DNA from: Acidimicrobiales bacterium
GTDB taxonomy: Bacteria; Actinomycetota; Acidimicrobiia; Acidimicrobiales; JAMCQF01
Assembly (NCBI GenBank): GCA_027366675.1
Contig: DAHXND010000180.1
Span: 1-51,419 of the forward strand
Length of the DNA stretch: 51,419 nucleotides
Reading direction: 5' to 3'
Below, piece by piece: positions 1,892-51,396 of this stretch. Under the pieces are notes generated by a model. The model was given only the letters and a program-made list of their open reading frames with translations, had not been told where the DNA came from and searched no databases. Numbering within the stretch: position 1 is the stretch's first letter; the number at the start of each line of letters is the position of its first letter. A program made the translations under genes and the position numbers.

Positions 1892-2025
1892 AGCCGTGGA
1901 GGCCGGCTACAGGACGGCGGGTCGAGTAAAGGAGCGGGTCCACCAAGGGAGGATCCCAGCTGGCCTTCCAGGCGGAGCATCTCTGGGTGGAGAGCCTCAA
2001 GTGGCTCGCAGGAGCGGGTCCAGAG

Positions 2026-35870: not shown

Positions 35871-36887
35871 TCAGACCGCTGGAACGGCCGTCTTCACTAT
35901 GGCGCCTGATGGCCGCATGACATGCCAGATCCCATCGAACTGATCCAGGTTCTGGCCGGCCAGGTCGCCAGGAGCGGTGTCCGTAGCGTAGTGGTAGAGC
36001 GGCCACCCGTTATATGTGAGCTCCTCACTCCCGCTCGGCCGCCTCACCTCCCCGACCAGGGAGCGCTGTATGCCGGGCCCGAAGCGCGATTCGCTCAGCG
36101 GTTTCTTGGTGAGCACCGGAGGCCACAGAGCCGTGCAGGCCCCGTGAGGGCAGTTGCTCCTGACCCCTCGCTGGTCACGGGTGAACATGAACACAGACAG
36201 CCCGGACCCTGTGGTGACGATGGTGCCAACTTTGGTCTTACGCGTGGAAAGCGCGTAGGGCGAGCTTGCCGAGCTGCTTGCGGAGCTGGAGGAGCCACAC
36301 GCTGCGAGAAGGCATGCAGCCAGAACTATCACAGCGAGTGGCGTTATGGTAAGGCGTGAAGCCTTGTCCTGGCTGGTGGCCGCATGGCTCTGGCCGTGAT
36401 CACTGACGGCAGAAGTCGCCGCAGGCGTGTAGGGGGAAGCGCCTGGCGCATCCGGAGAGCCTCCCCTGCCGGTACGGCCAGCTCCCAGGTAGCGACCGAG
36501 CAGCCCAGAGTGCTCGGCTGTGGATCCCCACACCGACCAGGCCAGCAGGGTGGTGGCGCCGATCACTTCTGACGCGATCGCGATCCCCCCCGAGTACGAG
36601 ATGCCTGGTTCGTGGAAGCCGAAAAGCACGGACTCGACAGCATATATGTACGCCCCGAGCGCACCTAGGCACATGAGTCCCGACGCGAGTGCCACCAGCC
36701 TGAGCGGGTATAGGGCGAGCAGGATGGCCAGCAAGAACGAGGAGATCACCAGCGCCAGGAACATCCAGCCGACCGTGGGTATGGCATCGTACTGCTCTCG
36801 CGCATACAGATTCAGGTGATCGACGGCTATGACGACCAGCATGGCTATCCCTACCCACAGCGCAGCGTGTCTGGTGTTCCGGGGCAT
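35871..36887 (-). CDS. Fusion of a 4-TM membrane domain to a lipobox-bearing COG4315 (Yx[FWY]xxD-motif secreted repeat, PF03640-like) domain
   Basis: The N-terminal roughly 120 aa form four hydrophobic helices. Then comes LTITPLAVIVLAACLLAACGSSS, a signal-peptide-like segment with an L-A-A-C lipobox. The C-terminal part carries CPHGACTALWPP and TYNGWPLYHYATDTAPGDLAGQ...GIWHV. No in-frame ATG, GTG or TTG precedes the internal lipobox segment. Confidence 0.6.
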   Translation of the reverse strand: MPRNTRHAALWVGIAMLVVIAVDHLNLYAREQYDAIPTVGWMFLALVISSFLLAILLALYPLRLVALASGLMCLGALGAYIYAVESVLFGFHEPGISYSGGIAIASEVIGATTLLAWSVWGSTAEHSGLLGRYLGAGRTGRGGSPDAPGASPYTPAATSAVSDHGQSHAATSQDKASRLTITPLAVIVLAACLLAACGSSSSASSSASSPYALSTRKTKVGTIVTTGSGLSVFMFTRDQRGVRSNCPHGACTALWPPVLTKKPLSESRFGPGIQRSLVGEVRRPSGSEELTYNGWPLYHYATDTAPGDLAGQNLDQFDGIWHVMRPSGAIVKTAVPAV

Positions 36888-36988
36888 GGGTACATTTCAG
36901 CATACGGCCTTGTCCCGGTCAGAGCGCGGGAGTCGACCCTCGCACTTGCTCAGCCAGTTCGTTCAGCGCTCTGACCCAGCCAGGGAGA

Positions 36989-37807
36989 TCAACTCGCGAA
37001 TGCCGTCTCGGCGTGGGCCTCTGCCGGGTCGTCGGATTCTGCCATCTCGTCCATCTGGATCGGTCCTTCGGTGCGACCGGCCAGGAACTGCTCTATGACG
37101 GGATCGGTGCTTGCCATCATCGCTTCCTTGGGGCCGAAGCCCACCAGGTGGGAGCGAAAGAGGATCCCGAGGAAGTCTGCTGTTCTGCTCACCGATTGGA
37201 TGTTGTGTGTGATGATGAAGAAGGTTGCTTTTGTGGCAGCCTGCGCTGTCACGACCAGCTCGTCCAGGTATGCAACGCGCACTGGATCGAGTCCGGAGTC
37301 CGGCTCGTCGAACAGGACTATCTCGGGCTCCATGACAAGCGCGCGCGCCAAGCCGGCGCGCTTGCGCATTCCTCCGGAGATCTCTCCCGGAAGCTTGTCC
37401 AGATGGTCGCCGAGCCCGACTATGGACGCATAGTGCATCACGATGTTCCTTATGGAACGCTCGTTGTTCTTCGTGTGCTCGCGCAGTGGAAATGCGATAT
37501 TGTCGTAGATGGGCATGGAGCCGAACAGGGCTCCATCCTGGAATAGCACGCCGAACTTGCGTCGCACCCGGTAGAGATCCTTCGTTCGCATGCCGACCAG
37601 TGGCTCTCCGTCTACCCATATCTGCCCGCTATCTGGCATGAGCAAGCCGAGGATGTGCTTCAGCAGGACGGACTTGCCGGTGCCGGAGGGCCCGAGAATA
37701 GCCGTGATGCGACCCTTCGGGATGTCGAAGGTGACATCGTCCAGGACAAGGTGGCTTCCGAACGCCTTGGTCAGCCCTTTGATGCTGATGATGGGCGTGG
37801 GTGGCAT
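36989..37807 (-). CDS. mceG: Mce-associated ABC transporter ATPase (MceG/Mkl, MlaF-like)
   Basis: Walker A GPSGTGKS, Q-loop FQDGALF, signature LPGEISGGMRKR and Walker B IVLFDEPDSGLD. ATG 37807 (GGAGA SD upstream) was chosen. The track ORF extends to 38005 but would run into the neighbouring gene. Confidence 0.85.
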   Translation of the reverse strand: MPPTPIISIKGLTKAFGSHLVLDDVTFDIPKGRITAILGPSGTGKSVLLKHILGLLMPDSGQIWVDGEPLVGMRTKDLYRVRRKFGVLFQDGALFGSMPIYDNIAFPLREHTKNNERSIRNIVMHYASIVGLGDHLDKLPGEISGGMRKRAGLARALVMEPEIVLFDEPDSGLDPVRVAYLDELVVTAQAATKATFFIITHNIQSVSRTADFLGILFRSHLVGFGPKEAMMASTDPVIEQFLAGRTEGPIQMDEMAESDDPAEAHAETAFAS

Positions 37808-37970
37808 TCTCCGGGCCTCGGGGCTCCCCTGGCTGGAGCCTGTCCGGCTCCCCTTGCCTGCTGCCGGTTCGGGGCGTACCCAGGAGATGCTCACGTACTG
37901 GTAACGTGCCTGCACAGCAGATCTTGCGGAGGCGCGCATGAGCCCCACTGATGGCATTGATTGGCGTTCC

Positions 37971-39602
37971 TCAGAGGCCGCTGCCGAGAACACCAGTGAG
38001 GTCACCGATCACGCCGGTGGCTCCCGACACCGTGCTACCGAGGGCGCTAGTGGCTCCAGATGCCGTGCGAGCGAGGGCGCTAGTGGCTGAAGATGCCGTG
38101 CTGCCGAGGGCGGACCCAGCCCCCGACACGGTGTTACCCAGGGCGCTAGTGGCTCCAGAAGCCGTGCGAGCGAGAGCGCTAGTGGCTCCCGATGCCGTGC
38201 TACCGAGAGCGCTAGTGGCTCCCGATGCTGCGCTACCGAGGGCGGACCCGGCCCCGGACAGCGTGCTGCCGAGAGCGGATCCGGCCCCAGACACCGTGTT
38301 ACCGAGAGCAGACCCGGCCCCAGACACCGTGTTACCAAGGGCGGATCCGGCTCCCGACACGGTGGAACCGAGAGCAGACCCAGCCCCGGACACCGTGCTA
38401 CCGAGAGCGGACCCAGCCCCGGACACCGTGCTACCGGGGGCGCTGGTGCTCGCGGCGCTGTCTCTTGCCGAGTTGGTAGCAGAACCTGATGTAGTGCCGG
38501 CGCCAGAGGCCTTCACGGGCAAATGCGCCTCCGAGCGGGGATGGGTCACCGATCCAGTCGGGGCGCTTCCGCCCGCGCGGGAGCTCACGGGACTCACGAG
38601 ATGGATGGCCCTCTTCCCGCTGGCCGGCGTGTTGCTGCCCTGAAGAATCACGGTAGGTACGATGACGCCAGCCGTGGCAACCGCAGCGAGAGCTCCGAGG
38701 AGCAGCAGGCGCGCGCTGTGCCCGGCAGCGGGGGCCCCTGACGTCAGAGCCTGAGACCCTCCAGGCATATGGCGGGCGAGCGATAGCCGCATGGCAGCGA
38801 GTTTCTCTCGTATCGCACTGGCGGCCCGGCTTGGTATCGCCCAGAGACTGGAAAGAGCGCCACCCAGCAGAGCGAAGGCCCCGAGGCCACCCTCGCAGAT
38901 CGCCTGGTATTCGCGTTTCAGCGCTTGCCGGGCACGCCACAGCAGGGTTTCCACCGTGCTCACCTCTACGCCCTCGCGCTCTGCTATCTCCTGGTAGCTG
39001 AGTGACGATCCTTCTCTGAGCTCGAGGACCATCTGGTGGCGCCGGTTCAGTCGCCTGAACGCCAACGATGCGATCCGGCGATCTTCTGCTTCCAGTACGG
39101 AAGCCTCACCGTCGTCTCGCTGGATTGCCGCTTCCACCTGGTGGCGACCAGCGAGATCGATATCTGCGACCGGGATGCTCCGGTGCCGCTTCCTGAGCTG
39201 GTCTGTGCATAGGTTGGCTGCGATCACGCTGAGCCACGGGTAGAAGCGCCTGTCTCCACCGAAGCGACCGAGCGCCTTCCAGGCCTTAATGAAGGATTCC
39301 TCGGTTACGTCCTCTGCCTCATGAGAGTCGCGCAGCCTCCTCATGCAGAAACGGAAAAGCCGCTCCCTGTAGCGGCGGTAAAGCTCCTCGAACGCTGAGT
39401 GGTCGCCCGCCTGGCACTGCTCCACCAGCAGGCGATCTCTGGCCAGATCCACGTCGTCCGAAAGTGACAGCCCTACGAGGGACCGATCCGCTCGACTGAC
39501 TCTCCAGCGAGAAGCTCGCTCCTGCCGCTGGCTCTCGTGCCCCCAGGCGTCTTCCTGCTCCCACTGATCCCCTTGCCCCCACTGGGCTTCTTCTATAGCC
39601 AT
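37971..39602 (-). CDS. ECF-type sigma-70 factor fused to hydrophobic segment(s) and a C-terminal 11-residue-repeat domain
   Basis: Region 2 is FEELYRRYRERLFRFCMRRLRDSHEAEDVTEESFIKAW. Region 4 is LNRRHQMVLELREGSSLSYQEIAEREGVEVSTVETLLWRARQALKRE. The same frame continues with hydrophobic stretches (aa 236-256 and 298-320). It then runs through 12 full plus 2 degenerate copies of GSTVSGAGSAL to the stop at 37971. Confidence 0.75.
   Translation of the reverse strand: MAIEEAQWGQGDQWEQEDAWGHESQRQERASRWRVSRADRSLVGLSLSDDVDLARDRLLVEQCQAGDHSAFEELYRRYRERLFRFCMRRLRDSHEAEDVTEESFIKAWKALGRFGGDRRFYPWLSVIAANLCTDQLRKRHRSIPVADIDLAGRHQVEAAIQRDDGEASVLEAEDRRIASLAFRRLNRRHQMVLELREGSSLSYQEIAEREGVEVSTVETLLWRARQALKREYQAICEGGLGAFALLGGALSSLWAIPSRAASAIREKLAAMRLSLARHMPGGSQALTSGAPAAGHSARLLLLGALAAVATAGVIVPTVILQGSNTPASGKRAIHLVSPVSSRAGGSAPTGSVTHPRSEAHLPVKASGAGTTSGSATNSARDSAASTSAPGSTVSGAGSALGSTVSGAGSALGSTVSGAGSALGNTVSGAGSALGNTVSGAGSALGSTLSGAGSALGSAASGATSALGSTASGATSALARTASGATSALGNTVSGAGSALGSTASSATSALARTASGATSALGSTVSGATGVIGDLTGVLGSGL
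37974..38435 (-). repeat. Tandem 33-nt repeat array, 14 units (12 full and 2 degenerate), in frame with the sigma gene
   Basis: Read directly. For example, 38403-38435 and 38370-38402 differ at 1 nt. Units 38403-38435 and 38337-38369 differ at 9 of 33 nt yet encode the identical peptide GSTVSGAGSAL on the minus strand. Confidence 0.95.
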
Positions 39603-39949
39603 GACCCCTCCCAGACCCCCTTCTCAGGCGATCATCACCAGGCGTTTGCACCCGGCAACAACCGGACTACCGAAGCTGGCCCTGCGGTCGGCCCAATCGC
39701 AGTTCCCCTATAGCTCGGGCTGACTTCCCCCGAAATTGCTGTTACCTCACGTATATCACGCTTGGTAGTGCTTTGCAAGCGCGCCGTGTTCGGGTTCTCA
39801 CCACAGGAGCTTCTGGCGGTGATCCCGGACGGATGATGGATGCTACCGCAAGTTCCCGATAGGGCAGCCGTTCCCTCTCCGTGGGGTTACCGTTCGTAGT
39901 GGTGACCGGAGCGAACGGGAATACACGAGATGCTCTATAAGGAGTCAGG
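39603..39949. promoter_or_regulatory. Divergent intergenic control region between the sigma fusion gene and the surface-protein/sortase operon
   Basis: This 347-nt gap lies between divergent start codons. It contains the inverted repeat ccgttcg-N15-cgaacgg (39890-39896 / 39912-39918) and an AAGGAG Shine-Dalgarno at 39939-39944. No confident -35/-10 pair was identified by eye. Confidence 0.4.
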
Positions 39950-41614
39950 ATGATGCTATATGAGGGGAAGATGTACAGATCCAGGGGTCTTGCCCTCGCA
40001 GCCGAGGCAGCCCTTGTCACAGCAGCCGTGCTGCTCGTGCTGCTCTCGAGCGTGGTATTCGTGGCATTCACCGATGGAGCGGCAGGAGCCGCACTGGCTC
40101 CCACCTGGAAGGGGAGCGCCTCGGCTCAGGCTCTCAAGGTATCCCTCGCGGGTACCAGCCTCGTAGGCGGAGATGCCACTTCGTCACTCTCGGGGACGCC
40201 GGCAGAAGGGGCGAGTGCCTCCTCGCAGATGCAGTCCCCAGATCTCCAGGCAACTGGCTCAGGCGAGCTCCTGCCGGTCCTGACAGCGCAGCAGAGCGCC
40301 AGGGTGACGGCGGCTGGCCGCCAAGACTCGCTACCGCAGGCCTGTGGCACCCCCTCGCTTCCCTCGCTTCCCGCTCCATTCACCTCCCTGCTTGCTCTTG
40401 GTGCAGGGTGCGGCTCAGCGACTGCCACAGCGACTGGACCCGACGAGGCTGCGAGCGCTACCGGGAGCGTGGCCAACCTGACCATCGGGCTCGGAGGTCT
40501 GTTGAAGGATGTGCCGGGGCTCAGCAGCGGCCTGTCGAGCCTAACATCGGCCCTCCAGTCTGCCCTTGGCTCCCTGCCGAGCTTGCCGGGCGGCGGGGTC
40601 TCGCCTACCAGTGCGTTGAGCAGCGTGCTGGGTGTCTTGAGCCATGCACCTGGCAGCCAGTCATCGTCGGTCTCTTCTAACAGCAGTGGCAGCGCCGGCG
40701 CGGATGGTGGGGGTGCCACCGTGGAAGGCAGTGGGTCATCCTCGGCATCCTCCAGCGGAGGCTCGGGCGGCTCTTCCGGCCTTCCATCGGTCCCCGGGCT
40801 CTCATCGCTGGCTGGGATCGTCCAGGGCATAGTCGGCTCACTCCCCGGCATGGCAAGCGGCGGCGTCTCCCCGGCAAGCGTGCTCGAAGGCGTCCTCGGG
40901 GTGCTCTCGGCGAGCCAGCTTCTCTCTGCGCAGATTGGCCAGTCCCAGGCAAGCATGGCAGCCACCGGGTCGGCATCCCTTCAGGCCTCGTCCACTGCAA
41001 ACGGGGGTAGCGTGGCGCTTTTCCCAGGGCTGGATGGGGGTTCAACTGCTCTCCTGACCGTGAACGTGGCTGCGGCGAGGAGCGTGGCGACCGAGCCGGC
41101 TGACGGCCAGCCTCCCACGGCGAGCGTGACGCCGGCCGTAGCCACCGTGACTGTTGCCCTACCGGGCACGGCGCCACAGACCCTGTCAGTCGGTCCTGGC
41201 AAGTCGGAGACGCTCTTCTCCGGGACGCCGCTCGAGAGCACGATCTCAGTCGCTGGAGGTAATACCTCGGTGCAGGGAGATACGGCTACGGCGAGCTCCC
41301 AGGGGGTTCAGATAGACCTGCTCCAAGGTCTGGATGGCGGCGTAAACCTCGATCTGGCCTCTACGAACGCGTCAGTCGACACCCCGGCGGTTCCGAGCAG
41401 CAGCCCGGTGAGCCCAGTCCCACCGGTGCAGGTGACGTCTTCGAGCACGCTTGCTCCGGTGACGGGCGTGACAAGCGTGCACACGGGCGAGCCGTGGGCT
41501 GGGGGGCTTCCTTACGCAGCGGGCCTTCTGGCTGTCGGGGCGGGTCTCATGAACCTACAGCGCATCCGGCGTGCTCTGAAACGCCTGCGGCTCCATCATG
41601 TCTCGGATAGATGA
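39950..41614 (+). CDS. Ser/Gly/Ala/Leu-rich secreted protein with a C-terminal cell-wall sorting-signal-like tail (candidate sortase substrate)
   Basis: N-terminal hydrophobic anchor or signal (ALVTAAVLLVLLSSVVFVAF). An internal roughly 40-aa duplication lies at 40511-40642 and 40790-40909. The C-terminus reads LAPVTGVTSVHTGEPWAGG, then the hydrophobic LPYAAGLLAVGAGLM, then the basic tail NLQRIRRALKRLRLHH. Confidence 0.6.
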   Translation: MMLYEGKMYRSRGLALAAEAALVTAAVLLVLLSSVVFVAFTDGAAGAALAPTWKGSASAQALKVSLAGTSLVGGDATSSLSGTPAEGASASSQMQSPDLQATGSGELLPVLTAQQSARVTAAGRQDSLPQACGTPSLPSLPAPFTSLLALGAGCGSATATATGPDEAASATGSVANLTIGLGGLLKDVPGLSSGLSSLTSALQSALGSLPSLPGGGVSPTSALSSVLGVLSHAPGSQSSSVSSNSSGSAGADGGGATVEGSGSSSASSSGGSGGSSGLPSVPGLSSLAGIVQGIVGSLPGMASGGVSPASVLEGVLGVLSASQLLSAQIGQSQASMAATGSASLQASSTANGGSVALFPGLDGGSTALLTVNVAAARSVATEPADGQPPTASVTPAVATVTVALPGTAPQTLSVGPGKSETLFSGTPLESTISVAGGNTSVQGDTATASSQGVQIDLLQGLDGGVNLDLASTNASVDTPAVPSSSPVSPVPPVQVTSSSTLAPVTGVTSVHTGEPWAGGLPYAAGLLAVGAGLMNLQRIRRALKRLRLHHVSDR

Positions 41615-42851
41615 CGCGGCCGGCCCTCGAAGTAGCGGTGCGCGCGCCCTGCATCCAAGCGTCGTAGCCGGTACACTTCTAATCTGGGTCGTTCTAGGAT
41701 TCGTTGGCTACGCTGCCGGCTGGACGTTCCGGAGCCATCGCGCAGACCAGGCCATAGTTCACTCTGTGCATTCGCAGCTTTCCACGATCAGCGTTGCCGG
41801 CTGCAGGCCAGTTCTGCCATCGAGCGGGCAAGTAGCTGGCATACTGTCCATTCCATCCCTCCATGTGAAGGCTCCCGTGGAGCAGGGGCTGGCAGGCGCG
41901 GTGCTGGATGTGGCAGTTGGCCACGCCTCCCAGTCGGTATGGCCAGGGCAAGGTGGCTCGGCCGTCTTCCTGGCCCACGACGTCAGCTATTTCAGCAGGA
42001 TCGACGAGCTCGCTCCCGGCTCTGTGATCACGTTCCAGGGTCTTCCTGAAGGTTGCAGGAAGCTGACGTTCGAGGTCACCGGCCACGACGTCGTTCCCGC
42101 TGGCTCTCCTATAGCTCAGCAGGCAGAGCCATCCATGGTGCTCGACACCTGCTGGCCCGTTAACGCGCTCTGGTACACACCGAACCGCTATCTGGTGCGC
42201 GCCGTGGAGGTAGGAGGCTCGCCTTCCAGGGTCGGTCCTCACTCCAGGGTCAATCCTCACTCCAGCGCCAGGAGCGCTGCTGCATCTAGAAGCGAGAAGG
42301 CGCACGAGAGCCCGCCGGGGAAGGCGGGAGTATCGAGAGCGCTACGGGAAGTCATGGTCAACCCCTCCTCCAGCTGGTCACTGCCGGCGTCATCGAACCT
42401 GGAAGTCCCTGCTCCGGCTGCCCTCGTCGCCCAGGGCCTGACGCTCCAGGACAACGAGGCACCCATGGGAGCCATGGCGCTGCTCGGGAGCCCTGCGTCG
42501 AGCTGGGCAGAGTCGCCAGCCCCGCTGGAGGTGGAGGCCAGCGCTCTCGAGGAGTACTTCGGTGCACTTCACGCGCTCTCTCAGGGCGAGGCTGCCTGGT
42601 GGGCAGATCTCGCTCCAGGAGTCACATTTCCCCAGATATTCGACGGGACTTCTGTGGTAGCCCATGACAGCGGTCTCGACGTCACGATCACGGCAGAGGG
42701 GACGCACCCGCTGGAAGTGATCCTCAGCTCCACCGTCGGGTTGTCAGGCGCATCAGTGCCAGGGGGATCCGGAGCTTACCGGCTAGAGGTGAAAGAGGCC
42801 GTGGAGGGCGGATCACTCTTCATAACTACATGGAGCGTGACGCCCGCATGA
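41598..42851 (+). CDS. Divergent sortase (class E/F-like transpeptidase fold) with N-terminal TM anchor and a roughly 200-aa C-terminal extension
   Basis: GILSIPSLHVKAPVEQG...VGHASQSVWPGQGGSAVFLAHDVSYFSRIDELAPGSVITF...MVLDTCWP...RYLVRAVEV reproduces the order of sortase His, Cys (TC.P) and Arg motifs. The usual AGHR is replaced by LAHD. There is a 17-nt overlap with the upstream gene. Confidence 0.6.
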   Translation: MSRIDDAAGPRSSGARALHPSVVAGTLLIWVVLGFVGYAAGWTFRSHRADQAIVHSVHSQLSTISVAGCRPVLPSSGQVAGILSIPSLHVKAPVEQGLAGAVLDVAVGHASQSVWPGQGGSAVFLAHDVSYFSRIDELAPGSVITFQGLPEGCRKLTFEVTGHDVVPAGSPIAQQAEPSMVLDTCWPVNALWYTPNRYLVRAVEVGGSPSRVGPHSRVNPHSSARSAAASRSEKAHESPPGKAGVSRALREVMVNPSSSWSLPASSNLEVPAPAALVAQGLTLQDNEAPMGAMALLGSPASSWAESPAPLEVEASALEEYFGALHALSQGEAAWWADLAPGVTFPQIFDGTSVVAHDSGLDVTITAEGTHPLEVILSSTVGLSGASVPGGSGAYRLEVKEAVEGGSLFITTWSVTPA

Positions 42852-43810
42852 TCCGAGCGCTTGCTATGGGGCTGAAGTTTTTTCCCCATGTGACCGCAAG
42901 GGTCCTGAAGCTCCGGCGTTTCACCGAGGTGGTGAAGACTCGGGGCCTCGCAGCGCGGCTTTCCAGTACGAGCTGGCGAACGCGTGCGATCATTTTCTCT
43001 GCGGGCAGCCTCGGCGCGCTGCTCACAGGTGGGATCCTGGGTGGAGCTCTGGGTGGGTTCCAGGTCTCCTTCCCATTCGCCGGAGCGTCCAGTCATGAAG
43101 GAAGGGTTCCCGCCCCTCGCGCAGGAAGGGTTCGAGCCCCAGGCAGAGGAGATGAGCTCAGGTCGCAGGATGTGGCCCTGATGTACCCTGCAGGTACATC
43201 GATCGCCGGGAGCTTTGGATCATCAGCCCCCGGTAGCAAGATCCCGGGAAGTGCTAGGGGCGCGACAGGCCCCGAGCTGGCCACGACCCCGGCCAGTGGT
43301 ACCGCCCATGGCGAGCCCGATTCGGCAACGGGAGCCCCACCCCGGAGCACGGATCCCACTCCGGGCTCGTCGAACGGGGCCGGCCCCGGCACTTCCTCGG
43401 GAGCGGATGGACCTTCCGGTGGGTCCACGACGCCGGTATCGGGGCCGGTATCGGGTACGCATGAAGGCTCGACCAGTAGCCCCCTTCCTGGCCATATCGA
43501 TCTCGGTAACGGCACTGTCCAGGTAGCTGCCAGCGGTAGCGGGGTTTCCGTCTCTGCCGGTAAGGGCGCGGCGGGCATCGGAGCAGGAAGCTCCGGGATC
43601 AGTGCTTCCCTGGGCAGCGGCGCAGTAGGCGTCAGCGCCGGCAGTTCCGGGGGCGGATCCTCGGCCACGAGCTCGTCTGGTAAGAGCGGATCCCCGACCG
43701 CGAGCTCGTCTGGCAAGAGCTCGCCAGGTGTCAGTGTGAGCGTTGCCGGGATCGATGTCGGCATCAGCTCTGGAGGCGTGACCAGCAATCTGAATCTCGG
43801 AGGTCTGTGA
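42830..43810 (+). CDS. Gly/Ser-rich membrane-anchored hypothetical protein
   Basis: The ORF overlaps the sortase gene end by 22 nt. It has one hydrophobic segment (AIIFSAGSLGALLTGGILGGALGGF), followed by a low-complexity P/S/G/T region and GSG(V/I)S(V/A)S-type repeats. The exact start is uncertain and no family was recognised. Confidence 0.4.
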   Translation: MERDARMIRALAMGLKFFPHVTARVLKLRRFTEVVKTRGLAARLSSTSWRTRAIIFSAGSLGALLTGGILGGALGGFQVSFPFAGASSHEGRVPAPRAGRVRAPGRGDELRSQDVALMYPAGTSIAGSFGSSAPGSKIPGSARGATGPELATTPASGTAHGEPDSATGAPPRSTDPTPGSSNGAGPGTSSGADGPSGGSTTPVSGPVSGTHEGSTSSPLPGHIDLGNGTVQVAASGSGVSVSAGKGAAGIGAGSSGISASLGSGAVGVSAGSSGGGSSATSSSGKSGSPTASSSGKSSPGVSVSVAGIDVGISSGGVTSNLNLGGL

Positions 43811-44000
43811 CTGCCTCCACCTAGATCGCAGCCTGTGACACGGGGGGACGCCTACCGGCTTGGTCGGCCCCCCAGAGGTCGGTATCGACCCCCCGTGGGC
43901 TGCATTGGCGCGATACATGCCCCTGCACGGGGCTTGCCCCTGGCTGCAGTTCCAGAGAGGGCTTTCATTCGGCCGGCTTCCCAGCGGCCAGCTTTCCGGT

Positions 44001-44040
44001 AGAGGGCTTCCCAGTAGAGGGCTTCCCAGTAGAGGGCTTT
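44001..44040 (+). repeat. Non-coding tandem 15-nt repeat agagggcttcccagt, about 2.7 units
   Basis: Read directly, in the 400-nt gap upstream of the mce operon. Confidence 0.85.
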
Positions 44041-44210
44041 CATGTGCCGGGCTTTAGCGGCTAAATATCTCACTTCCTGTGGTCGGCTGGCCGCAAGGCA
44101 AGGGGTGTTGCCACGTTACCCAGACAGGGGAGCAGTCGAGGATAGGCCGCTCCGATCGGAAGGACTACAGCAGGGGGCCTTCAGTGGTGCAAGATACCGA
44201 CAGGGAAGGT

Positions 44211-45053
44211 ATGAGGGGAGCGCTCGGGCTGTCCTCGGGCGCGCCGAAGGCCCGTCCATCCGATCCTCTGGTGCCGCCGCTCGGAGCGAAGGTTCGGCGG
44301 CTGCTCGAGGATACAGGCAACATGTTCGCAGTTGCCCTGGAAGCGCTACGCAGTCTCTTCACGGAGGGAATGCCGCTCGGTGAGCTCATAGACCAGTGCT
44401 GGTTCCTCGCACGGGTAACGACCCTGCCACTCATACTGGTCTCGGTTCCCTTCGGTATGGTGATCGCGCTCGAGGTCGGATCCCTGCTGTCCCAGGTCGG
44501 GGCGCAGGCTCAGCTGGGAGGCGCGATGGTCCTCGCTGTAGTGCGCGAGCAGGCTCCCATTGCCACAGCCCTGCTCATAGCTGGTGCGGGCGGGTCCGCG
44601 ATGTGCGCCGATCTCGGTAGCAGGAGGATTCGCGACGAGATCTCGGCGATGGAGGTTATGGGTGTCAATCCGCTGAACAGGCTCGTTCTCCCGCGCCTCG
44701 CGGCAGCCATGATCGTGGCGTTCCTTCTCGATTCTGTCGTGAGCGTTGCCGGGATCGCAGGAGGGCTCTACTTCGGAACTGCGTCAGTTCACATAACCGT
44801 CAGCAGCTTCTTCGCCACATTCAGCGAGCTGAGCCAGATCTGGGATCTGCTCATGGCACTGGTGAAGGCGTTGATCTTCGGCCTTATCGCTGCGATGGTT
44901 GCCTGCTACAAGGGCCTCTACGCGAAGGGAGGCCCCAAGGGAGTCGGGGATGCAGTGAACCAGGCTGTCGTCATAACGTTCATCCTCGCGTTCGTGGTGA
45001 ACTCCGTGCTCACCATCGGATACTTCAACTTCATACCTCAGAAGGTGATCTGA
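44211..45053 (+). CDS. yrbE: Mce-system permease YrbE-A (MlaE family)
   Basis: LGELIDQCWFLARVTTLP, VVREQAPIATALLIAGAGGSAMCADLGSRRIRDEISAMEVMGVNP. ATG 44211 is preceded by GGGAAGG. The track ORF starts at 44079. Confidence 0.85.
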   Translation: MRGALGLSSGAPKARPSDPLVPPLGAKVRRLLEDTGNMFAVALEALRSLFTEGMPLGELIDQCWFLARVTTLPLILVSVPFGMVIALEVGSLLSQVGAQAQLGGAMVLAVVREQAPIATALLIAGAGGSAMCADLGSRRIRDEISAMEVMGVNPLNRLVLPRLAAAMIVAFLLDSVVSVAGIAGGLYFGTASVHITVSSFFATFSELSQIWDLLMALVKALIFGLIAAMVACYKGLYAKGGPKGVGDAVNQAVVITFILAFVVNSVLTIGYFNFIPQKVI

Positions 45054-45055
45054 GC

Positions 45056-45946
45056 ATGGCTATAGCCGTCGACAGGGGGGTAGCTGATCGCAGGGGGGTC
45101 TCCGGCGAGCGCCGCCATCACACTCCGGGCCAGCGTGCTCTGAGCCAAGCCCTTGGCGCGATCGAGCTCGTATACGACCATCTGGCCTTCTACTGGCAGG
45201 TTCTGCGGGCGATGCCAAAGGCACTGAAGTACCGGGCCGAGATCTTGCTCCTCATCTCGGACATAGCTGTTGGACCCAGCGCTCTCGTAGTAGGGGGCGG
45301 GATGCTCTTCGTCGTAGTCAGCATCTCGTTCTTCACGGGCACCGAGGTGGGTCTGGAGGGATTCACGGGCCTGCACGAGATCGGGGCCCAGGCATTCGTA
45401 GGGGTGATCGCGTCACTCGCCAACACGAGAGAGATCACGCCGCTGGTAGCCGGGATCGCCCTGGCTGCACAGGTGGGTGCTGGCTACACCGCGCAGATTG
45501 GCGCGATGAAGATCTCCGAGGAGATCGACGCTCTCGAGGTAATGGGCGTGAACAGCACGGTTTACCTGATCGGCACGCGCGTCTGGGCAGCTCTGGTAAC
45601 GATGATACCGCTATACTTGGCAGCGCTGTTCTCCAGCTTCTTGGCCAGCCAGTTCATCGTTACTACCTTCGAGCACCTGCCAGTTGGCACCTACCAGCAC
45701 TACTTCCAGCTCTTTCTCCCACCGATAGATATCTTCTACTCATTCCTGAAAGCCATGGCGTTCGCGGTTGTCGTGGTCATGGTGCACTGCTACTACGGCT
45801 ACAAGGTCAGGGGCGGCCCTGCAGATGTTGGTGTGGCAGCGGGAAGGGCCATAAGGCTCTCGATCATCTTGATAGTGCTTCTGAACCTCTTCCTCTCGCT
45901 CGTGATGTTCGGAGGGGACTCGAACACGGCGAGGTTGCTCGGGTGA
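45056..45946 (+). CDS. yrbE: Mce-system permease YrbE-B (MlaE family)
   Basis: TREITPLVAGIALAAQVGAGYTAQIGAMKISEEIDALEVMGVNS, paralogous to the preceding gene. Confidence 0.85.
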   Translation: MAIAVDRGVADRRGVSGERRHHTPGQRALSQALGAIELVYDHLAFYWQVLRAMPKALKYRAEILLLISDIAVGPSALVVGGGMLFVVVSISFFTGTEVGLEGFTGLHEIGAQAFVGVIASLANTREITPLVAGIALAAQVGAGYTAQIGAMKISEEIDALEVMGVNSTVYLIGTRVWAALVTMIPLYLAALFSSFLASQFIVTTFEHLPVGTYQHYFQLFLPPIDIFYSFLKAMAFAVVVVMVHCYYGYKVRGGPADVGVAAGRAIRLSIILIVLLNLFLSLVMFGGDSNTARLLG

Positions 45947-47358
45947 CGGGGAAGCTTGTGACGAGAGCCACAGCGGGTCCATCCCTCGAGCCTGGGGCTG
46001 TTCCTGAGTCGGCAGAGGTGCGACGTAGCGCTGCGGGCCACGAGCGGAGCCATCGCATCAGGAGGATAGCGACCGCGCTCGTGGCGGTCATGGCTCTCGT
46101 CGCTGGTGTCACGGTCGCTATCAGGGCCGCTGACGGTGATTACTCAGGAGCCTACCGGCTGGTAGGAATGTTCAGTCGAGCAGGCGAGGGGCTTGCGCCA
46201 GGTTCCCAGATCACTTACCGAGGGGTGCAGGTGGGGCGAGTGTCTGGTGCAACGCTGTCAGGTGGTCACGCGCGCCTGGTAATGCTGATCGACCCAGGAT
46301 TCCGAGTCCCACGCGATGCCGTGGCGACCATAGCACCTCAGAATATTTTCGGGGCCGACCAGGTAGACTTGAGCTTCCCGGCTGGAGATCATGGTCCCTG
46401 GCTTCGCCACGGTGGGACGGTTCTGGCTACTCGGGTGCAGGGACAGATCCTCGATCTGTTCGCTGCTGCTGACCCGCTGCTCGAGCGGATCGACACGGGC
46501 GCGCTCTCTAGCGTGGTATCGGAGCTTGCACAGGCGTCATCCGGGGACGGTCCTCAGATAGCGCGGTCGATCAGTGCGGGCGCGAAGCTGGCCAGCTTGC
46601 TCGATCAGACTGTCAGCAGCCAGATCTCCTTCCTCGACAGCTTCGACGCGCTCAGCGCCCAGGTGGCGGGTGTCGGTCCTACTCTGGACAACCTCTCGAA
46701 TCAGAGCAACGTATTTCTGCCATCGTTCAACGATGCGGCAGCATCCTACGCCAAGGTGCTGGCGAGCTTCACGCCTTTCGCCAACGATTTCGCCAGCCTG
46801 CTGGCCGACTACCGGCCGAACTTCGTGCAGCTCCTGAACGAGGGGGAGGACGTAGTAGCCGTGCTCGTCGCAAGCCGGCCCCAGATCGCCGGGGCCCTCG
46901 AGGGCCTGGACAACTACGTGTACAAGATCGAGCACGGTGTCAGCAGCGAGACCCTTCCGGATGGGTCGCATTTCTCCTACTTCAACACCTTCATCATGTT
47001 CTCTGATGTGAACAATCTCGTGTGTAGCTTGCTCGCTCCGAACCAGCCTGGCATGGCATTCCTCGAGCCGCTCCAGCAGGCGCTCACCGGTTCGGGGAGC
47101 CCGTTCAACTGCAGCACGGAGCTGGCCAGGTTCGATGCCGCTCAGGCTGGCAGCTCCTCGACCAGAGCCGCGCCAGCACCAGCGGCCAAGCCGGCCCCGA
47201 AGCCGAGCGGCACGAGCGTCACCTCCCTTCTGCCGCCAGCCGTATCGGGCGCGGCGAGGAAGCTTCTCCAGGCGGTGGACCAGATCCTGGGTGCCCCAAC
47301 CTCTGCGAAGCAGAGGTCGATAGGGTCTTATGTCCACATGCTTCTGGGAGGTCTGTGA
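45943..47358 (+). CDS. mce: Mce-family substrate-binding protein (MlaD domain), first of the series
   Basis: N-terminal TM (IATALVAVMALVAGVTVAI) followed by an MlaD/MCE domain (YRLVGMFSRAGEGLAPGSQITYRGVQVGRVSG...). The start overlaps the yrbE-B stop. Confidence 0.85.
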   Translation: MTGKLVTRATAGPSLEPGAVPESAEVRRSAAGHERSHRIRRIATALVAVMALVAGVTVAIRAADGDYSGAYRLVGMFSRAGEGLAPGSQITYRGVQVGRVSGATLSGGHARLVMLIDPGFRVPRDAVATIAPQNIFGADQVDLSFPAGDHGPWLRHGGTVLATRVQGQILDLFAAADPLLERIDTGALSSVVSELAQASSGDGPQIARSISAGAKLASLLDQTVSSQISFLDSFDALSAQVAGVGPTLDNLSNQSNVFLPSFNDAAASYAKVLASFTPFANDFASLLADYRPNFVQLLNEGEDVVAVLVASRPQIAGALEGLDNYVYKIEHGVSSETLPDGSHFSYFNTFIMFSDVNNLVCSLLAPNQPGMAFLEPLQQALTGSGSPFNCSTELARFDAAQAGSSSTRAAPAPAAKPAPKPSGTSVTSLLPPAVSGAARKLLQAVDQILGAPTSAKQRSIGSYVHMLLGGL

Positions 47359-48599
47359 TGGCCTGGTGGCGGCGCAGCTCCCCCGCGGACGGGCGTGCCC
47401 GGCCGAGGCAGGGCAGGCGCTTCTCCAGGAAGTCGCTCCTGGGCTTCACTGCCTTCGCGGTAGTGTGCCTGCTTCTCCTCGGTGAGCTGGCGATCAAGGT
47501 GGGGAACTTGCATCCCTTCGCCAGCACCAGGACCTACTACGCGGATATGGCCAACGTGACGGGCCTCACGAGCGGGGATGCCGTGAAGATAGCCGGCGTA
47601 TCTGTCGGCCAGGTCGCTGCCATCGGCGTTCAGCACGGGCATGCTGTCGTGACACTTGCGATCAACCGGGGGGTGAAGCTTCCAGAGGGGACAGAGGTGG
47701 GGATCCAGTGGAGGAACGTCATCGGGCAGATGGAGCTGTACCTCTACCCACCATCAGCGGGCCGGCCGATGCCTGCAGGCTCTACTATCCCACTGAGCGC
47801 CAACGCCGCCAGCCCTAACCTCGGGGCGCTTCTCAGCTCTTTCGGGTCTTTCCTCGGCGCGATAAATCCGGAAGAGGCCAATGCGTTTATCGTGAGCATC
47901 GCTAACGCCCTGGACGGCCAGAGCGCACAGGTGCGCGAGCTCATAGCCAACGGGGCAGTCGTATCGAAGACGCTCGGAGGGTTGAACAGCGAGATAGGGG
48001 CGGTGATCGGTGACTTCGACCAGGTGTTGTCGGCACTCGCGTCACGCAGCTCTGACCTCGGTTCCCTGCTGGATCACCTCGACAGCCTGACCTCCACCCT
48101 GCAACAGCACAACGATCTCCTGGACCAGGCGATAGGGAACCTGGGTAGCTTCGCGAACGATCTGGCGAGTCTCGAGAAGACGAACCACGCAGCGCTTTCC
48201 GGCCTCCTCACGAACCTGAACGCTGTCGTTTCGACCCTGAGCACCCACCAGAGCGAGCTTGCAGGAACCCTCAGCACCCTCGGTGAGGGTATAGCACCTT
48301 ACGAGCTGATCTCCTCGCAGGGTCAATGGTTCCAGATAAGGACTGTCTATACCTGCCTGGCGAACGAGACCACTTGCAACTACTACGAGCCGACGAATCC
48401 GCCCTCTGGTACTGGCTTGCTCGGCTCCCCGCCTACCTCGCTCCCGCTATCAGTGCCTGGCACTTCCGGGCGAGCGGCTACAGCGCAGCCATCCGGCGGG
48501 GCTCCCTTCTCTGGCACTGGCGGTATAGAGCAGGTACTGGAGCAAGTGGCTGGGGCTACCAGCGATGCTGGATCCGGAGCGGGAGCGGGAAAGTCATGA
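47355..48599 (+). CDS. mce: Mce-family protein, second
   Basis: TM segment followed by YYADMANVTGLTSGDAVKIAGVSVGQVAAI (MCE domain) and a helical region. ATGA overlap with the preceding gene. Confidence 0.85.
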   Translation: MMAWWRRSSPADGRARPRQGRRFSRKSLLGFTAFAVVCLLLLGELAIKVGNLHPFASTRTYYADMANVTGLTSGDAVKIAGVSVGQVAAIGVQHGHAVVTLAINRGVKLPEGTEVGIQWRNVIGQMELYLYPPSAGRPMPAGSTIPLSANAASPNLGALLSSFGSFLGAINPEEANAFIVSIANALDGQSAQVRELIANGAVVSKTLGGLNSEIGAVIGDFDQVLSALASRSSDLGSLLDHLDSLTSTLQQHNDLLDQAIGNLGSFANDLASLEKTNHAALSGLLTNLNAVVSTLSTHQSELAGTLSTLGEGIAPYELISSQGQWFQIRTVYTCLANETTCNYYEPTNPPSGTGLLGSPPTSLPLSVPGTSGRAATAQPSGGAPFSGTGGIEQVLEQVAGATSDAGSGAGAGKS

Positions 48600-49750
48600 A
48601 GGCTTTCACGGATAGGAAGCCGCTGGTGATCGGCGTAGTCGCGATCGTGGTGATCGTCGTGCTGGGATCACTCGTGCTCGTGCTGAAGCGCACGACATTC
48701 GAGTCCGCTTATCCCATCCGAGCGAGCTTCGCCTCGGCGGCAGGGGTGGGAGCAGGGGCAGATGTGCTGCTCGCAGGTGTCCCTGTGGGGCGCGTGGCGT
48801 CGGTGCAGCTTCATGGTGACCATGTGATCCTAACGCTGAACATAGACCACGGTGTCGTGCTCCCACACGATACGTCAGCCTCTATACAGACAGAGACCGT
48901 GCTCGGGGTCCTGGACGTGAGCCTGCACGCGATAGGCGGGTGGGCTCGCCCTCTCCCTGCCGGCGACCTCATCACTGACACGAGCATGCCCACAGAGCTG
49001 TACCAGCTCCAGGACGAGGCGGGTCGTTTCTTCGAGAGGGTGAACACGCAGGCCTTCAACGAGCTGGTAGATGAGCTGAATAAGATAACATCGGGTAACG
49101 AATCCCAGGTCAAAGCCATCATAGACGGCCTGGGCAGGCTCACTACGACGATCGACGAGAGATCGAGCGAGCTGGCACAGCTCATAGATGCCGCAGATAG
49201 CGTTAGTGGGCTCCTGGCCAGTCATGATGCCCAGATCCAGGGCGTGCTCGACAACCTGACCACAGTGGTGCAGGGGCTGGCAGACCGCAGTGGCGAGGTC
49301 GCGGCGTTCATCCAGGGCATAGACGCGGCGGGCGCCAATACCGCTTCGCTCGTGCGCCAGGATGCTCCGGAGCTCGACTCCCTCATCTCACACCTGGAGA
49401 GCGTCCTCGGTGTCGTAGCGAGCCATCAGCTCGACCTGGCCGAGGCGGTGTCGTATCTGGCTGCCGGGGTGAAGGGCTTCGCGTCGGTCGGCTACTCGGG
49501 TCCGGCTGATACGCCCAACACCTGGGCTAACATCTATACGAACCTCTTGGTGACGTCCGGTGTCTATGGAGTTCTCGGCGCCTGCGGGGCACTCTCCGAG
49601 GTGGAGAACGTCGCCCTGGGGCCGGATCCTCTCCCCTGTGGCAAGCGGGACGGCCCATCCCCGTCAGGCAGCTCTTCCCCCGCTCGCGGATCGGGGGGGT
49701 CGAAGGTGTCCTCCGTGATCTCCCCCCTGCTTCCCGGAGGTGGCTCGTGA
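48596..49750 (+). CDS. mce: Mce-family protein, third
   Basis: MKAFTDRKPLVIGVVAIVVIVVLGS followed by YPIRASFASAAGVGAGADVLLAGVPVGRVASV. ATG 48596 overlaps the preceding stop (ATGA). The track ORF start at 48326 is out of context. Confidence 0.85.
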   Translation: MKAFTDRKPLVIGVVAIVVIVVLGSLVLVLKRTTFESAYPIRASFASAAGVGAGADVLLAGVPVGRVASVQLHGDHVILTLNIDHGVVLPHDTSASIQTETVLGVLDVSLHAIGGWARPLPAGDLITDTSMPTELYQLQDEAGRFFERVNTQAFNELVDELNKITSGNESQVKAIIDGLGRLTTTIDERSSELAQLIDAADSVSGLLASHDAQIQGVLDNLTTVVQGLADRSGEVAAFIQGIDAAGANTASLVRQDAPELDSLISHLESVLGVVASHQLDLAEAVSYLAAGVKGFASVGYSGPADTPNTWANIYTNLLVTSGVYGVLGACGALSEVENVALGPDPLPCGKRDGPSPSGSSSPARGSGGSKVSSVISPLLPGGGS

Positions 49751-51396
49751 AGAGGCATGCCTTCATCGAGCGCATGGCTGGGAGGCGCCTGGCTGGGAGG
49801 CGGCTGTTTGTGGTGACAGCGGCTGTAGCGATGCTGCTCGGAGGAGCACTGGCTGCTGTGGTGGCGCTGACGAGCGGCCCCTCGACCTACCGGATAGAGG
49901 CTGAGTTCGCGAGCGCGCCGGGGCTCTTCGCAGGTGCTCCCGTGGAGATGCTTGGTGTCCAGATCGGCACAGTGACTGCAGTGAAGGCGGATCCCGGCCA
50001 CGTGCTGGTCACCATGGGCATCGACAGCGGGCGGCCTGTGCCAAGGGGTGCCGATGCAGCGCTGACTTCCGTAGAGCTGCTGAACGAGCCCGACGTAGTG
50101 CTCGTTCCGGGATATAGTGGTGGTCCGCGTATGAGGCCGTCCTCCGTGATTCCCGAGTCCCACACTGCGGTCCCGGTCTCCACGGAGCGCCTGCTAGAGG
50201 AGCTCCAGACGGTGCTCAGGCAGGTGAACCCGAAGTCGGTCGGTGGCCTGGTGCACAACCTTGCTCTCGACCTGGGTGGCCAGGGCAAGGAACTCCAACG
50301 TCTCATCTCCGGAGCGGCAGGGACGCTTCAGGTGCTTGCCCAGAAGGGCAACGATCTCGGCCGCCTCGACGGATCTCTCGCTTCGGTGATGAAGACATTG
50401 CGCGCAGACTCGACGAATCTGGTGCAGCTGATCACGGACTACGATACGGTGTCTTCCGTAATCGCCAGCAACGACAGCGCTCTCGGGCAGGGCCTGGCGA
50501 ATCTGGACGCTGCCTCGAAGCAGCTCGTCGACCTGCTGGCTCCGAACCTCGCGCCACTGGAAAAGGAGGTGCCCGTAGTCACCACGGTCGGCAGGACACT
50601 GGACCGGAACCTGAGCTCGCTGGACGAGCTCCTGGCATCGGCGGTGAAGCTCTTCAGCGGGGCGGAGCGGGCATACGTTCCCCAGTACAAGTGGCTGAAC
50701 CTGAACAATCAGCTGCCACCAGGTATGACCGGTGCTTACGTGGCCGGGCTGATAGGAGATCGCTTGGCCGGGATATGCCGTCGCCTGCTGGCTAACCACT
50801 CGGCCGGCCTGAGCGTAGCAGAGATCGCGACTCTGAAGACCTGCGGGAATCCTGACTCGGGATTCTTCGACCCGATACTCGGCCTCGTGCCGAAGATACT
50901 GGACTCCCTGCCCGGTGGGGGAAATGCCACCAGCCTGCCGAACCTATCGGGTGTGAGCGCATCACCAGCTACCTCTGCCAGCTCTGTCTTCGAGAAGGGT
51001 CTTGGCGAGATACCGGGCCTGAGCAACGCAGAGAAGGCAGCCCTCGAGCACGGTGCATCGTCCCCGCCATCCTCTGGATCTCGGGCTACGGCGCAGGGAG
51101 GACCATCCTCGGGCTCATCCCGGGCGTCCTCTGCGCCCAGCGGATCTACCCGGTCGGGCGGAAATGGAGCGTCGCCGTCGGGTGGGAAGCAGATCACGAT
51201 CAAGACCCCGCTGTTGAACCTGTCTCTCTCTGCCGACAGGGATCTTCCTTCCATAGCGCGCCTACCCGGCGCAGCCAGGCGGCCAGGCGGTGTGAGCGGC
51301 TTCTTCGACCAGGTCGCTCATGCTGTCTCGAGCGCGCTGTCGAGCGCTGCCCACGCGCTGTCCAGGGGCTTCGAAGTGATTGGCGGGTGGCTCTGA
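49747..51396 (+). CDS. mce: Mce-family protein, fourth, with a Ser/Gly-rich C-terminal tail
   Basis: TM segment followed by YRIEAEFASAPGLFAGAPVEMLGVQIGTVTAV (MCE domain). GTGA overlap with the preceding gene. Confidence 0.85.
   Translation: MKRHAFIERMAGRRLAGRRLFVVTAAVAMLLGGALAAVVALTSGPSTYRIEAEFASAPGLFAGAPVEMLGVQIGTVTAVKADPGHVLVTMGIDSGRPVPRGADAALTSVELLNEPDVVLVPGYSGGPRMRPSSVIPESHTAVPVSTERLLEELQTVLRQVNPKSVGGLVHNLALDLGGQGKELQRLISGAAGTLQVLAQKGNDLGRLDGSLASVMKTLRADSTNLVQLITDYDTVSSVIASNDSALGQGLANLDAASKQLVDLLAPNLAPLEKEVPVVTTVGRTLDRNLSSLDELLASAVKLFSGAERAYVPQYKWLNLNNQLPPGMTGAYVAGLIGDRLAGICRRLLANHSAGLSVAEIATLKTCGNPDSGFFDPILGLVPKILDSLPGGGNATSLPNLSGVSASPATSASSVFEKGLGEIPGLSNAEKAALEHGASSPPSSGSRATAQGGPSSGSSRASSAPSGSTRSGGNGASPSGGKQITIKTPLLNLSLSADRDLPSIARLPGAARRPGGVSGFFDQVAHAVSSALSSAAHALSRGFEVIGGWL

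Follow-up and report, generated by a model that had tools for sequence, protein, structure and literature searches.

The sigma factor gene and the layout of its product

The stretch of DNA analysed here (the window, 51,419 nucleotides from an Acidimicrobiales bacterium; contig DAHXND010000180.1 of assembly GCA_027366675.1) carries at 37971-39602, on the minus strand, a gene for an extracytoplasmic function (ECF) sigma factor whose reading frame runs on, past the sigma domains, into a predicted transmembrane (TM) helix and a long tail. A previous sequence-only reading of the same DNA had described one polypeptide made of these three parts, leaving the strand unstated, and a single uninterrupted 543-codon open reading frame (ORF) agrees with it. 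The protein starts at an ATG with a Shine-Dalgarno (SD)-like GGGAGG 4 nt ahead of it, and an identical protein is already on record. Its features are as follows.

37971..39602, minus strand: coding sequence of the predicted membrane-anchored ECF sigma factor, 543 aa plus stop (ORF translation, SD-like site)
39465..39602, minus strand: lineage-specific leader, aa 1-46, acidic and Trp-rich (alignment, pLDDT 44-59)
38898..39464, minus strand: ECF sigma core, aa 47-235 (Pfam, NCBIfam, pLDDT >90, invariant alignment columns)
39180-39383, minus strand: sigma-2
38919-39062, minus strand: sigma-4
38712..38897, minus strand: juxtamembrane linker, aa 236-297 (modelled helices, family pattern, charge)
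38643..38711, minus strand: predicted single Ala-rich TM helix, aa 298-320 (Kyte-Doolittle 2.23, 75/76 homologues)
37974..38642, minus strand: predicted extracytoplasmic low-complexity tail, aa 321-543, ending LTGVLGSGL (composition, pLDDT <50, charge)
38019..38442, minus strand: 33-bp (11-aa) tandem repeat array, ~13 copies (Tandem Repeats Finder (TRF), lag-11 self-identity)

Profile searches bear out the assignment of regions 2 and 4 of a group 4 sigma factor, which had also been made from the letters alone. In Pfam terms, aa 74-141 match Sigma70_r2, aa 181-228 match Sigma70_r4_2 and aa 59-232 match Sigma70_ECF; PF04542 (62 bits) and PF08281 (36.6 bits) both exceed their cut-offs, as does NCBIfam TIGR02937 (sigma70-ECF) with 103.9 bits vs a cut-off of 42.9. 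Regions 2 and 4 are the only sigma regions present, the makeup of group 4 (ECF) sigma-70 factors. The nearest PDB sigma cores are 1or7, 6in7 and 5wuq (RpoE, AlgU-like and SigW sigmas), and matches of the core to these structures and to the RpoE and SigW models of NCBIfam have E values of 1e-20 to 1e-31; the core falls ~100 bits short of the cut-offs of RpoE, SigW and all other named NCBIfam equivalogs. Family signatures in the core, forming invariant alignment columns, are DDVDLxRDR, GDRRFYPWL and LLWRARQALKRE. The acidic, Trp-rich stretch at aa 4-23, pointed out earlier as an unusual leader, is present and probably translated, since no alternative ATG, GTG or TTG lies between M1 and the conserved DDVDLARDR (aa 49-57). 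The family does not share it: among 27 aligned homologues this protein alone has the inserted leader, which was modelled at pLDDT 44-59.

All PDB matches end near residue ~237, and after region 4 the frame continues without a stop. Kyte-Doolittle means over 19 residues give a weak hydrophobic stretch (1.3-1.5, aa 234-258) and then a strong one (up to 2.23, aa 297-321), the succession that had been described for this protein. The weak stretch corresponds to a Gly-rich, hydrophobic linker helix (H1) that directly prolongs the last sigma-4 helix and is followed by a basic segment; its hydrophobic run is only ~14 residues long, and the family pattern of the linker reads GAWLGGxLSLAxLRRLL followed by R/K. 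The linker between sigma-4 and the TM helix measures ~46-60 residues, and an equivalent of the helix at aa 298-320 was found in 75 of the 76 complete homologues described below. The 25 aa ahead of the TM helix have a net charge of +4.2, and the value after the helix is +0.15. This charge bias, together with the short H1 ahead of a basic segment, leads to a predicted topology with the sigma core inside, one strong TM helix and the tail outside, which by hydropathy and charge is the single-pass N-in/C-out arrangement of sigma systems controlled by regulated intramembrane proteolysis. A hairpin of two TM helices with the tail inside was rejected on account of the ~14-residue H1, and the basic stretch would then face outward. 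An AlphaFold2 model built on a 110-sequence alignment has pLDDT >90 for sigma-2 and sigma-4, shows two helices at aa 214-254 and aa 261-275 with pLDDT 60-84, and is unstructured from the TM segment onward (pLDDT <50).

C-terminal to the strong TM stretch, 223 residues were counted, in line with the ~220 given by the sequence-only reading. They are not a generic extension: the tail consists of 22 % Ser, 20 % Ala, 19 % Gly and 11 % Thr, and TRF detects at 38019-38442 a 33-bp repeat with 12.8 copies and 76 % matches, so that the earlier description had missed an 11-residue tandem repeat of ~13 copies with the consensus G-S-T-V-S-G-A-G-S-A-L. The lag-11 self-identity is 0.55 in this tail and 0.21 family-wide vs a background of ~0.13, and the 11-residue periodicity is found throughout the family with sub-peaks at 4 and 7. 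An antisense ORF facing the repeats (37951-38643) was discarded, being open only because the repeat lacks stops.

The family and its fused architecture

A word-indexed protein search returned 367 proteins at E<=1e-5, and the best 120 of these 367 are all 337-578 aa long, with sigma domains as their sole Pfam matches. At the threshold used, a single hydrophobic helix is placed at ~240-290 in about 50 of the first 60 homologues, and behind it comes a tail of 150-280 aa rich in G, S, T, A and L. At least 226 relatives occur in species-representative genomes, almost all of them Acidimicrobiales/Acidimicrobiaceae and including the isolate Aciditerrimonas ferrireducens (JCM 15389, locus L015). The 81 non-redundant related loci contain 76 complete ORFs, and the succession of sigma domains, TM helix and tail is present in 76/76 of these ORFs from other genomes. 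The extension is 308 aa long here and 150-330 aa in the homologues; reaching >50 aa past sigma-4, conserved and with no adjacent anti-sigma gene, it places the family in the general class of ECF sigma factors with a C-terminal extension. The clade is sharply bounded in sequence space, as an exhaustive phmmer search with the core alone returned 255 cluster representatives at E<=1e-30 vs 26,365 at 1e-10. Nearly all of the best 150 phmmer matches are 300-580 aa long, the few short members (191-266 aa) look truncated or frameshifted, and no convincing unfused variant was found among the phmmer family members. Some members (P0186, P0192, P0216 and L084, the last a 928-aa ORF) are longer by 180-660 residues ahead of the sigma core, possibly through mis-called starts or further fusions.

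The window is a single metagenome-type contig and repeats are prone to errors, so that a missed stop or frameshift merging a sigma gene with a separate anti-sigma (or membrane protein) gene has to be weighed. The comparative evidence makes such an artefact extremely improbable. The same colinear architecture recurs in all 76 complete homologous ORFs, which come from independent assemblies including one isolate genome. Conservation is unbroken across the junction, where LLWRARQALKREF is followed by GAWLGGxLSLAxL, by LRRLL with basic residues and by the Ala-rich TM helix, and the LLGG motif at the C-terminus (see below) is conserved in frame. In addition, four near-identical sigma genes (L005, L006, L007 and L008) contain 8, 11, 11 and 14 copies of SSGLSNTLNST; because they differ by whole 11-residue units, the frame of the tail is maintained. 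On these comparisons the fusion is real and under selection, and a sequencing artefact, the possibility raised when the gene was first described, is excluded. The copy differences among the four genes may reflect fast in-frame expansion and contraction, or repeat collapse in short-read assemblies of metagenome-assembled genomes (MAGs).

The idea that the extension might act as the sigma factor's own anti-sigma factor found no backing; the sequence-only reading had remarked that the two functions usually reside on separate polypeptides. An HxxxCxxC zinc finger is present in 0/110 family members, and in 107/110 the extension is devoid of Cys over its first 90 aa. Linker and tail have no match to Pfam or PDB sequences even at E<=10, and at the same threshold zf-HC2, RskA, FecR, DUF4880, DUF4974 and carbohydrate-binding (NPCBM/ricin-type) domains are all absent from the extension. 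For a class I/II anti-sigma domain contacting sigma-2 and sigma-4, no sequence similarity was found, and two linker helices are modelled at moderate confidence.

These absences also bear on whether the protein is an ordinary member of ECF48, ECF52 or ECF53, with a zinc-binding anti-sigma domain and a TM helix. In the ECF classification 2.0, these groups (e.g. SCO4117 of ECF52) are extended at the C-terminus by as much as ~400 aa that include about one TM helix, have a predicted proteolytic release, have a zinc finger as their defining feature and, in certain ECF52 subgroups, carry a carbohydrate-binding domain. The present family resembles them in being actinobacterial, in an extension that measures 230-330 aa and contains about one TM helix, and in having no separate anti-sigma gene next to it. 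In contrast to them, it has the zinc finger and the carbohydrate-binding domain in 0/110 members, its extension is in most members Cys-free over the first 90 aa, and neither zf-HC2 nor RskA is detectable. Its sigma core is closest to RpoE, AlgU and SigW, and the ECF53 promoter (TGTTTATC / TCTCC) differs from the motif described below. The group descriptions in the ECF classification 2.0 mention neither Acidimicrobiia nor the Mce genes that surround the sigma gene here, and the signature peptides of the family were not found in the part of its supplementary tables that was available. Judged by its features and by the group descriptions, the family would stand apart from ECF48, ECF52 and ECF53, and membership in them appears improbable.

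The mce neighbourhood and a shared promoter-like motif

On the minus strand, the sigma gene is followed by genes for an MlaF/Mkl-type ABC ATPase and an SCO0930-like lipoprotein. Divergent from it, on the plus strand, lie genes for a sortase substrate (554 aa), a sortase, a protein that is in effect the sigma extension without the sigma (the tail-only protein, 293 aa), and an operon of two yrbE and four mce genes.

34433-35764, plus strand: M50 metalloprotease, an M50 family member with a CBS domain
36989..37894, minus strand: mkl/mlaF-type ABC ATPase gene (NCBIfam MlaF, E = 1.2e-63)
39950..41614, plus strand: putative sortase substrate (N-terminal TM/signal, G/S/T/L-rich body, VHTGEPW, TM and basic tail)
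41598..42851, plus strand: sortase-domain protein (Pfam PF04203)
42929..43810, plus strand: tail-only membrane protein (basic N-terminus, one TM, G/S-rich tail ending NLNLGGL)
44079..51396, plus strand: mce operon (Pfam MlaE; TIGR00996, 148.9 vs cut-off 140.5)
44079-45053 (true start probably ~44211) and 45056-45946, plus strand: MlaE/YrbE permeases
45943-47358, 47355-48599, 48326-49750 and 49747-51396, plus strand: four Mce/MlaD proteins

Two yrbE/mlaE genes, several mce/mlaD genes and an mkl/mlaF ATPase gene together make up an Mce transporter locus, and the linkage of this set to the sigma gene recurs in the family, with mkl as the next gene downstream and mlaE or the sortase substrate as the gene upstream. 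The mkl gene is directly downstream on the same strand in 42/68 loci with enough flanking sequence, mlaE is upstream and divergent in 34/58 related loci, a sortase is encoded in 20/58, and mkl and mce occur together in 31 of the 51 loci having both flanks. Homologues of the lipoprotein and AIM24 of the window were found in none of the 81 related loci.

A bipartite motif found by k-mer enrichment upstream of the sigma genes connects the members of this neighbourhood. In its strict form, CGCAAG-N15-17-GTT, it has 112 sites in the 1.24 Mb of related loci vs 22.6 +/- 5.5 in shuffles. Three gene-proximal positional classes hold 85/112 of these sites: just past the sigma stop and facing mkl (31 loci), divergent from sigma and facing mlaE or the sortase-substrate gene (37 loci), and, in 15 loci of the sortase type, before mlaE; a remainder of 20 sites corresponds to the background level. 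Loci without mkl and mce have the motif in 1/9 cases. The window has four sites vs 0.68 expected, a number reached in 0/100 shuffles; the four are confined to 6.2 kb around the sigma gene, and they face downstream genes.

37903..37928, minus strand: CGCAAG-N17-GTT before mkl; in-frame GTG at 37894, 8 nt past GTT
39847..39872, plus strand: CGCAAG-N17-GTT facing the sortase-substrate gene, divergent from sigma; equivalent site in 37 loci
42895..42920, plus strand: CGCAAG-N17-GTT before the tail-only gene; in-frame GTG at 42929, 8 nt past GTT
44092..44117, plus strand: CGCAAG-N17-GTT before the mce operon; equivalent before mlaE in 15 sortase-type loci

In 26/31 loci, an ATG or GTG in frame with Mkl stands 8-9 nt past the GTT, and these starts fix the orientation of the motif and its nature as a promoter; the spacing has the geometry of a -10 element, implying a leaderless mkl mRNA. 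The motif does not have a TANNNT -10 and looks ECF-like, with CGTT at -10; GCAAG-type -35 elements have been reported for some ECF218 subgroups (ECF classification 2.0). Given that the ECF sigma factor is adjacent to the motif and co-occurs with it, we infer that this sigma is the most parsimonious reader of these promoters. Neither the conserved mkl/mce linkage nor the shared motif had been noticed in the sequence-only reading, as was the case for the tail repeats.

Several other readings of the promoter sequences were considered and set aside. Read in the sense of the sigma gene, the motif becomes GGAAC...CTTGCG, which would be an autoregulatory promoter with a 140-340 nt leader and odd 'antisense' copies; the reverse strand gives the in-frame starts. 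An autoregulatory candidate upstream of sigma, CGCAGG-N18-GTT at -84, has one mismatch and a long spacer and is not relied on. A minus-strand ORF at 43223-43918, taken as the target of the 44.1-kb site, is an Arg-rich out-of-frame translation. A scan of 37700-40000 for sigma-70-type promoters found none, and a search of 36800-44400 against Rfam gave no match.

The motif sites touch on gene calls around them. The GTG 8 nt past the GTT of the site divergent from sigma opens a 19-codon ORF (39881-39940, plus strand) whose TAA stop comes right ahead of AAGGAG, the ribosome-binding site of the sortase-substrate gene; this ORF could be a leaderless upstream ORF. The tail-only gene has what appears to be its own leaderless promoter inside the 3' end of the sortase gene. 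The start of the first mlaE ORF (44079-44211) is probably called too far upstream, as the promoter motif lies within it, and the same probably applies to the third mce gene (48326-48596), in which the N-terminal TM begins ~90 codons in. In the subclade represented by L031, L063 and L076, the 17-nt spacer of the mkl motif is a GC-rich inverted repeat, e.g. CCCGGGCCCGGG, which may serve in addition as the sigma gene's terminator hairpin or as an operator.

The products of the cluster share a further feature with the sigma factor, at their C-termini. About 42/76 sigma tails end in GGLLGG or similar (VLGSGL in the window). The first Mce protein has an LLGG-type end in 27/38 operons and the third in 7/30, those at other operon positions never do, and the MceA of the window ends MLLGGL. 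The tail-only proteins of the window and of L005, L006, L007, L008, L015, L046 and L047 end LLGGL or NLNLGGL, and that of A. ferrireducens also has GxTVSGL-type repeats. Among ~1970 other ORFs of >=200 aa in the related loci, only ~4 have an end of this type. Because the same C-terminal motif is found in MceA, MceC and the tail-only protein, the sigma tail resembles a module of the envelope proteins of the cluster; the C-termini of Mce proteins are extracytoplasmic, which is in line with the predicted outside location of the sigma tail. One conceivable, if rather unlikely, explanation is that the tail imitates the Mce needle subunits as a decoy. The sigma factor would then sense the assembly or occupancy of Mce complexes, via an outside partner or protease common to these proteins, and would tune mce, mkl and envelope genes. 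If true, the lipid transporter would have a structure-mimicking feedback sensor made of one protein, which may stay tethered and act in cis on promoters no farther than 5 kb away. BLAST similarity between sigma tails and the sortase substrate, uncorrected for composition, is composition-driven and was not taken as homology.

The sortase substrate has a non-canonical sorting signal instead of LPXTG, (S/T)(A/S)VHTGE(W/P)W(A/S)GS-LP followed by a hydrophobic helix and PRLRR, and homologues of the substrate/sortase pair occur in >20 loci, e.g. L015, L022 and L047. The sortase of the window misses the cut-offs of all NCBIfam sortase classes (58 bits vs 140 for class D, the best of them), and the pair may represent an undescribed class. 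Elsewhere in the window, 1896-2921 (plus strand) encodes a 341-aa protein with an RsiG-like domain (PF22802, E = 4e-18); the domain family is that of the c-di-GMP-dependent anti-sigma factor of WhiG, and the gene sits among heme-biosynthesis and housekeeping genes.

Proposed mode of control and relation to known systems

A membrane-tethered sigma factor controlled via its tail or by proteolysis, as the sequence-only reading had it, is still the most reasonable reading of the gene. On balance, we think it moderately probable that the protein is a membrane-anchored pro-sigma factor, released by proteolysis, and a dedicated regulator of the flanking Mce/envelope cluster. The full-length sigma factor would be held inactive at the membrane, since the tether, with H1, starts only ~10 residues past the -35-recognition helix. 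The outside tail would sense a change and thereby become open to trimming, after which cleavage of the Ala-rich helix within the membrane would free the sigma core to act at the CGCAAG-N15-17-GTT promoters of mkl (leaderless), the yrbE-mce operon, the sortase-substrate gene and the tail-only gene. The Ala-rich TM segments of RseA and RsiW give Clp degrons after site-2 cleavage. By analogy with known systems, regulated proteolysis is the most likely route of activation: the sigma/anti-sigma hybrid IutY is cut by Prc and RseP (PMC8999054), and the disordered outside region of RsgI is needed for signalling through RasP (PMC10556640).

Release of this kind would need some intramembrane protease, and the M50 gene at 34433-35764 had been put forward for this role. 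Its position and its membership in the M50 family were confirmed, and the gene is close, 2.2 kb from the sigma gene. It is, however, on the opposite strand with two genes between, and tblastn within +/-8-10 kb found no M50 homologue in the 81 related loci. The anti-sigma site-2 proteases RseP, RasP and Rip1 are of the PDZ type, whereas the M50 protein of the window has a CBS domain instead and scores 21.6 bits against the RseP equivalog, far below the cut-off of 147.6. M50 proteins with CBS form a SpoIVFB-like rather than an RseP-like subgroup. Judged by synteny, the related loci having no homologue, the proximity would be coincidental and peculiar to this genome, and a dedicated role of this protease in freeing the sigma factor is quite doubtful.

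The sigma factor may also never be released. It would then work while tethered, recruiting RNA polymerase at the membrane to nearby promoters in a cis-acting, transertion-coupled manner, as the products of the sigma gene and of its membrane-protein targets would be inserted there during transcription and translation, with the tail modulating activity allosterically or by clustering. Consistent with this, no predicted target promoter is farther than ~5 kb from the sigma gene, be it in the window or in the related loci, every target encodes a membrane or secreted protein, neither an anti-sigma domain nor a conserved protease was found, and a linker of ~46-60 residues may suffice for reach. The hydrophobic helix ~10 residues past the -35-recognition helix should, on the other hand, hinder docking to the beta-flap and DNA, and some loci have no nearby targets. 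We know of no active membrane-tethered sigma factor, and overall we consider this mode of action, the main alternative, unlikely.

Several observations weigh against the proteolytic-release model as well. No anti-sigma-like fold is detectable in the linker, and silencing by tethering alone is an assumption; AlphaFold2 does not render the TM segment as a helix, and its model is uninformative about linker packing. No conserved protease gene accompanies the family in the 81 related loci. The -35 half of the motif, CGCAAG, does not contain the canonical ECF 'AAC', and another sigma factor could read the motif. About a quarter of the family loci have no mkl, mce or sortase nearby, and paralogues may differ in their targets. 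The related sequences are mostly MAG contigs, in which assembly may collapse repeat copy numbers.

The general idea of an ECF sigma factor fused to a membrane-spanning extension is already known. IutY of Pseudomonas putida (ECF243) is activated by Prc and the site-2 protease RseP, as demonstrated experimentally, and its truncation yields a constitutively active sigma factor (PMC8999054). Like the protein described here, IutY is one polypeptide in which a single TM helix joins an N-terminal ECF sigma to a C-terminal part that lies (here by prediction) outside the cytoplasm. The extension of IutY is a FecR-type anti-sigma factor that receives its signal from a TonB-dependent receptor in a Gram-negative envelope, whereas here neither FecR nor a receptor is found, the outside part consists of probably disordered repeats, and mkl, mce and sortase genes surround the gene. 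In RsgI of the SigI/RsgI system of Firmicutes, an extracytoplasmic disordered region senses the state of the envelope and licenses intramembrane cleavage (PMC10556640). The sigma factor resembles RsgI in being, by prediction, a single-pass membrane protein with a long, disordered extracytoplasmic region. RsgI differs in being a protein of its own, with an anti-sigma domain at the N-terminus and, beside the membrane, an autoproteolytic SEAL domain; in the present protein the cytoplasmic domain is the sigma factor, and the model predicts no folded domain on the outer side of the membrane next to it. The systems with the closest sigma cores, RpoE/RseA and SigW/RsiW, are classic cases of regulated intramembrane proteolysis of a single-pass partner; here, unlike in these pairs, the membrane part is covalently fused and not homologous to RseA or RsiW.

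The known regulators of actinobacterial mce genes are soluble repressors, Mce1R and Mce2R of the GntR type and Mce3R and KstR of the TetR type. Like them, the present regulator is encoded beside an mce operon; unlike them, it would be a membrane-anchored sigma factor. To our knowledge, no membrane-anchored ECF sigma factor has been described as an mce-linked regulator, and a full-text literature search found no report of one as an mce regulator. The features that set the family apart are an extension with no recognisable anti-sigma domain, a disordered repeat tail, an LLGG end in common with Mce subunits, the tight linkage to mce and mkl, and a defined local promoter set. The proteins appear to form a discrete Acidimicrobiales sigma family that is undescribed in the literature searched.

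Membrane-spanning ECF sigma factors are represented mainly by one experimental case, IutY, and by zinc-finger groups known from prediction, and the family differs from both, also in its small predicted regulon, which is encoded locally. It offers a clean system for asking how tethering alone can silence a sigma factor and how a disordered outside segment signals. The motif, with starts 8-9 nt downstream, provides a means to correct start-codon calls in Acidimicrobiales. For Mce transporters, the findings suggest a new type of regulator and a C-terminal motif common to sensor and transporter subunits, ideas that could be tested in cultured Aciditerrimonas ferrireducens.

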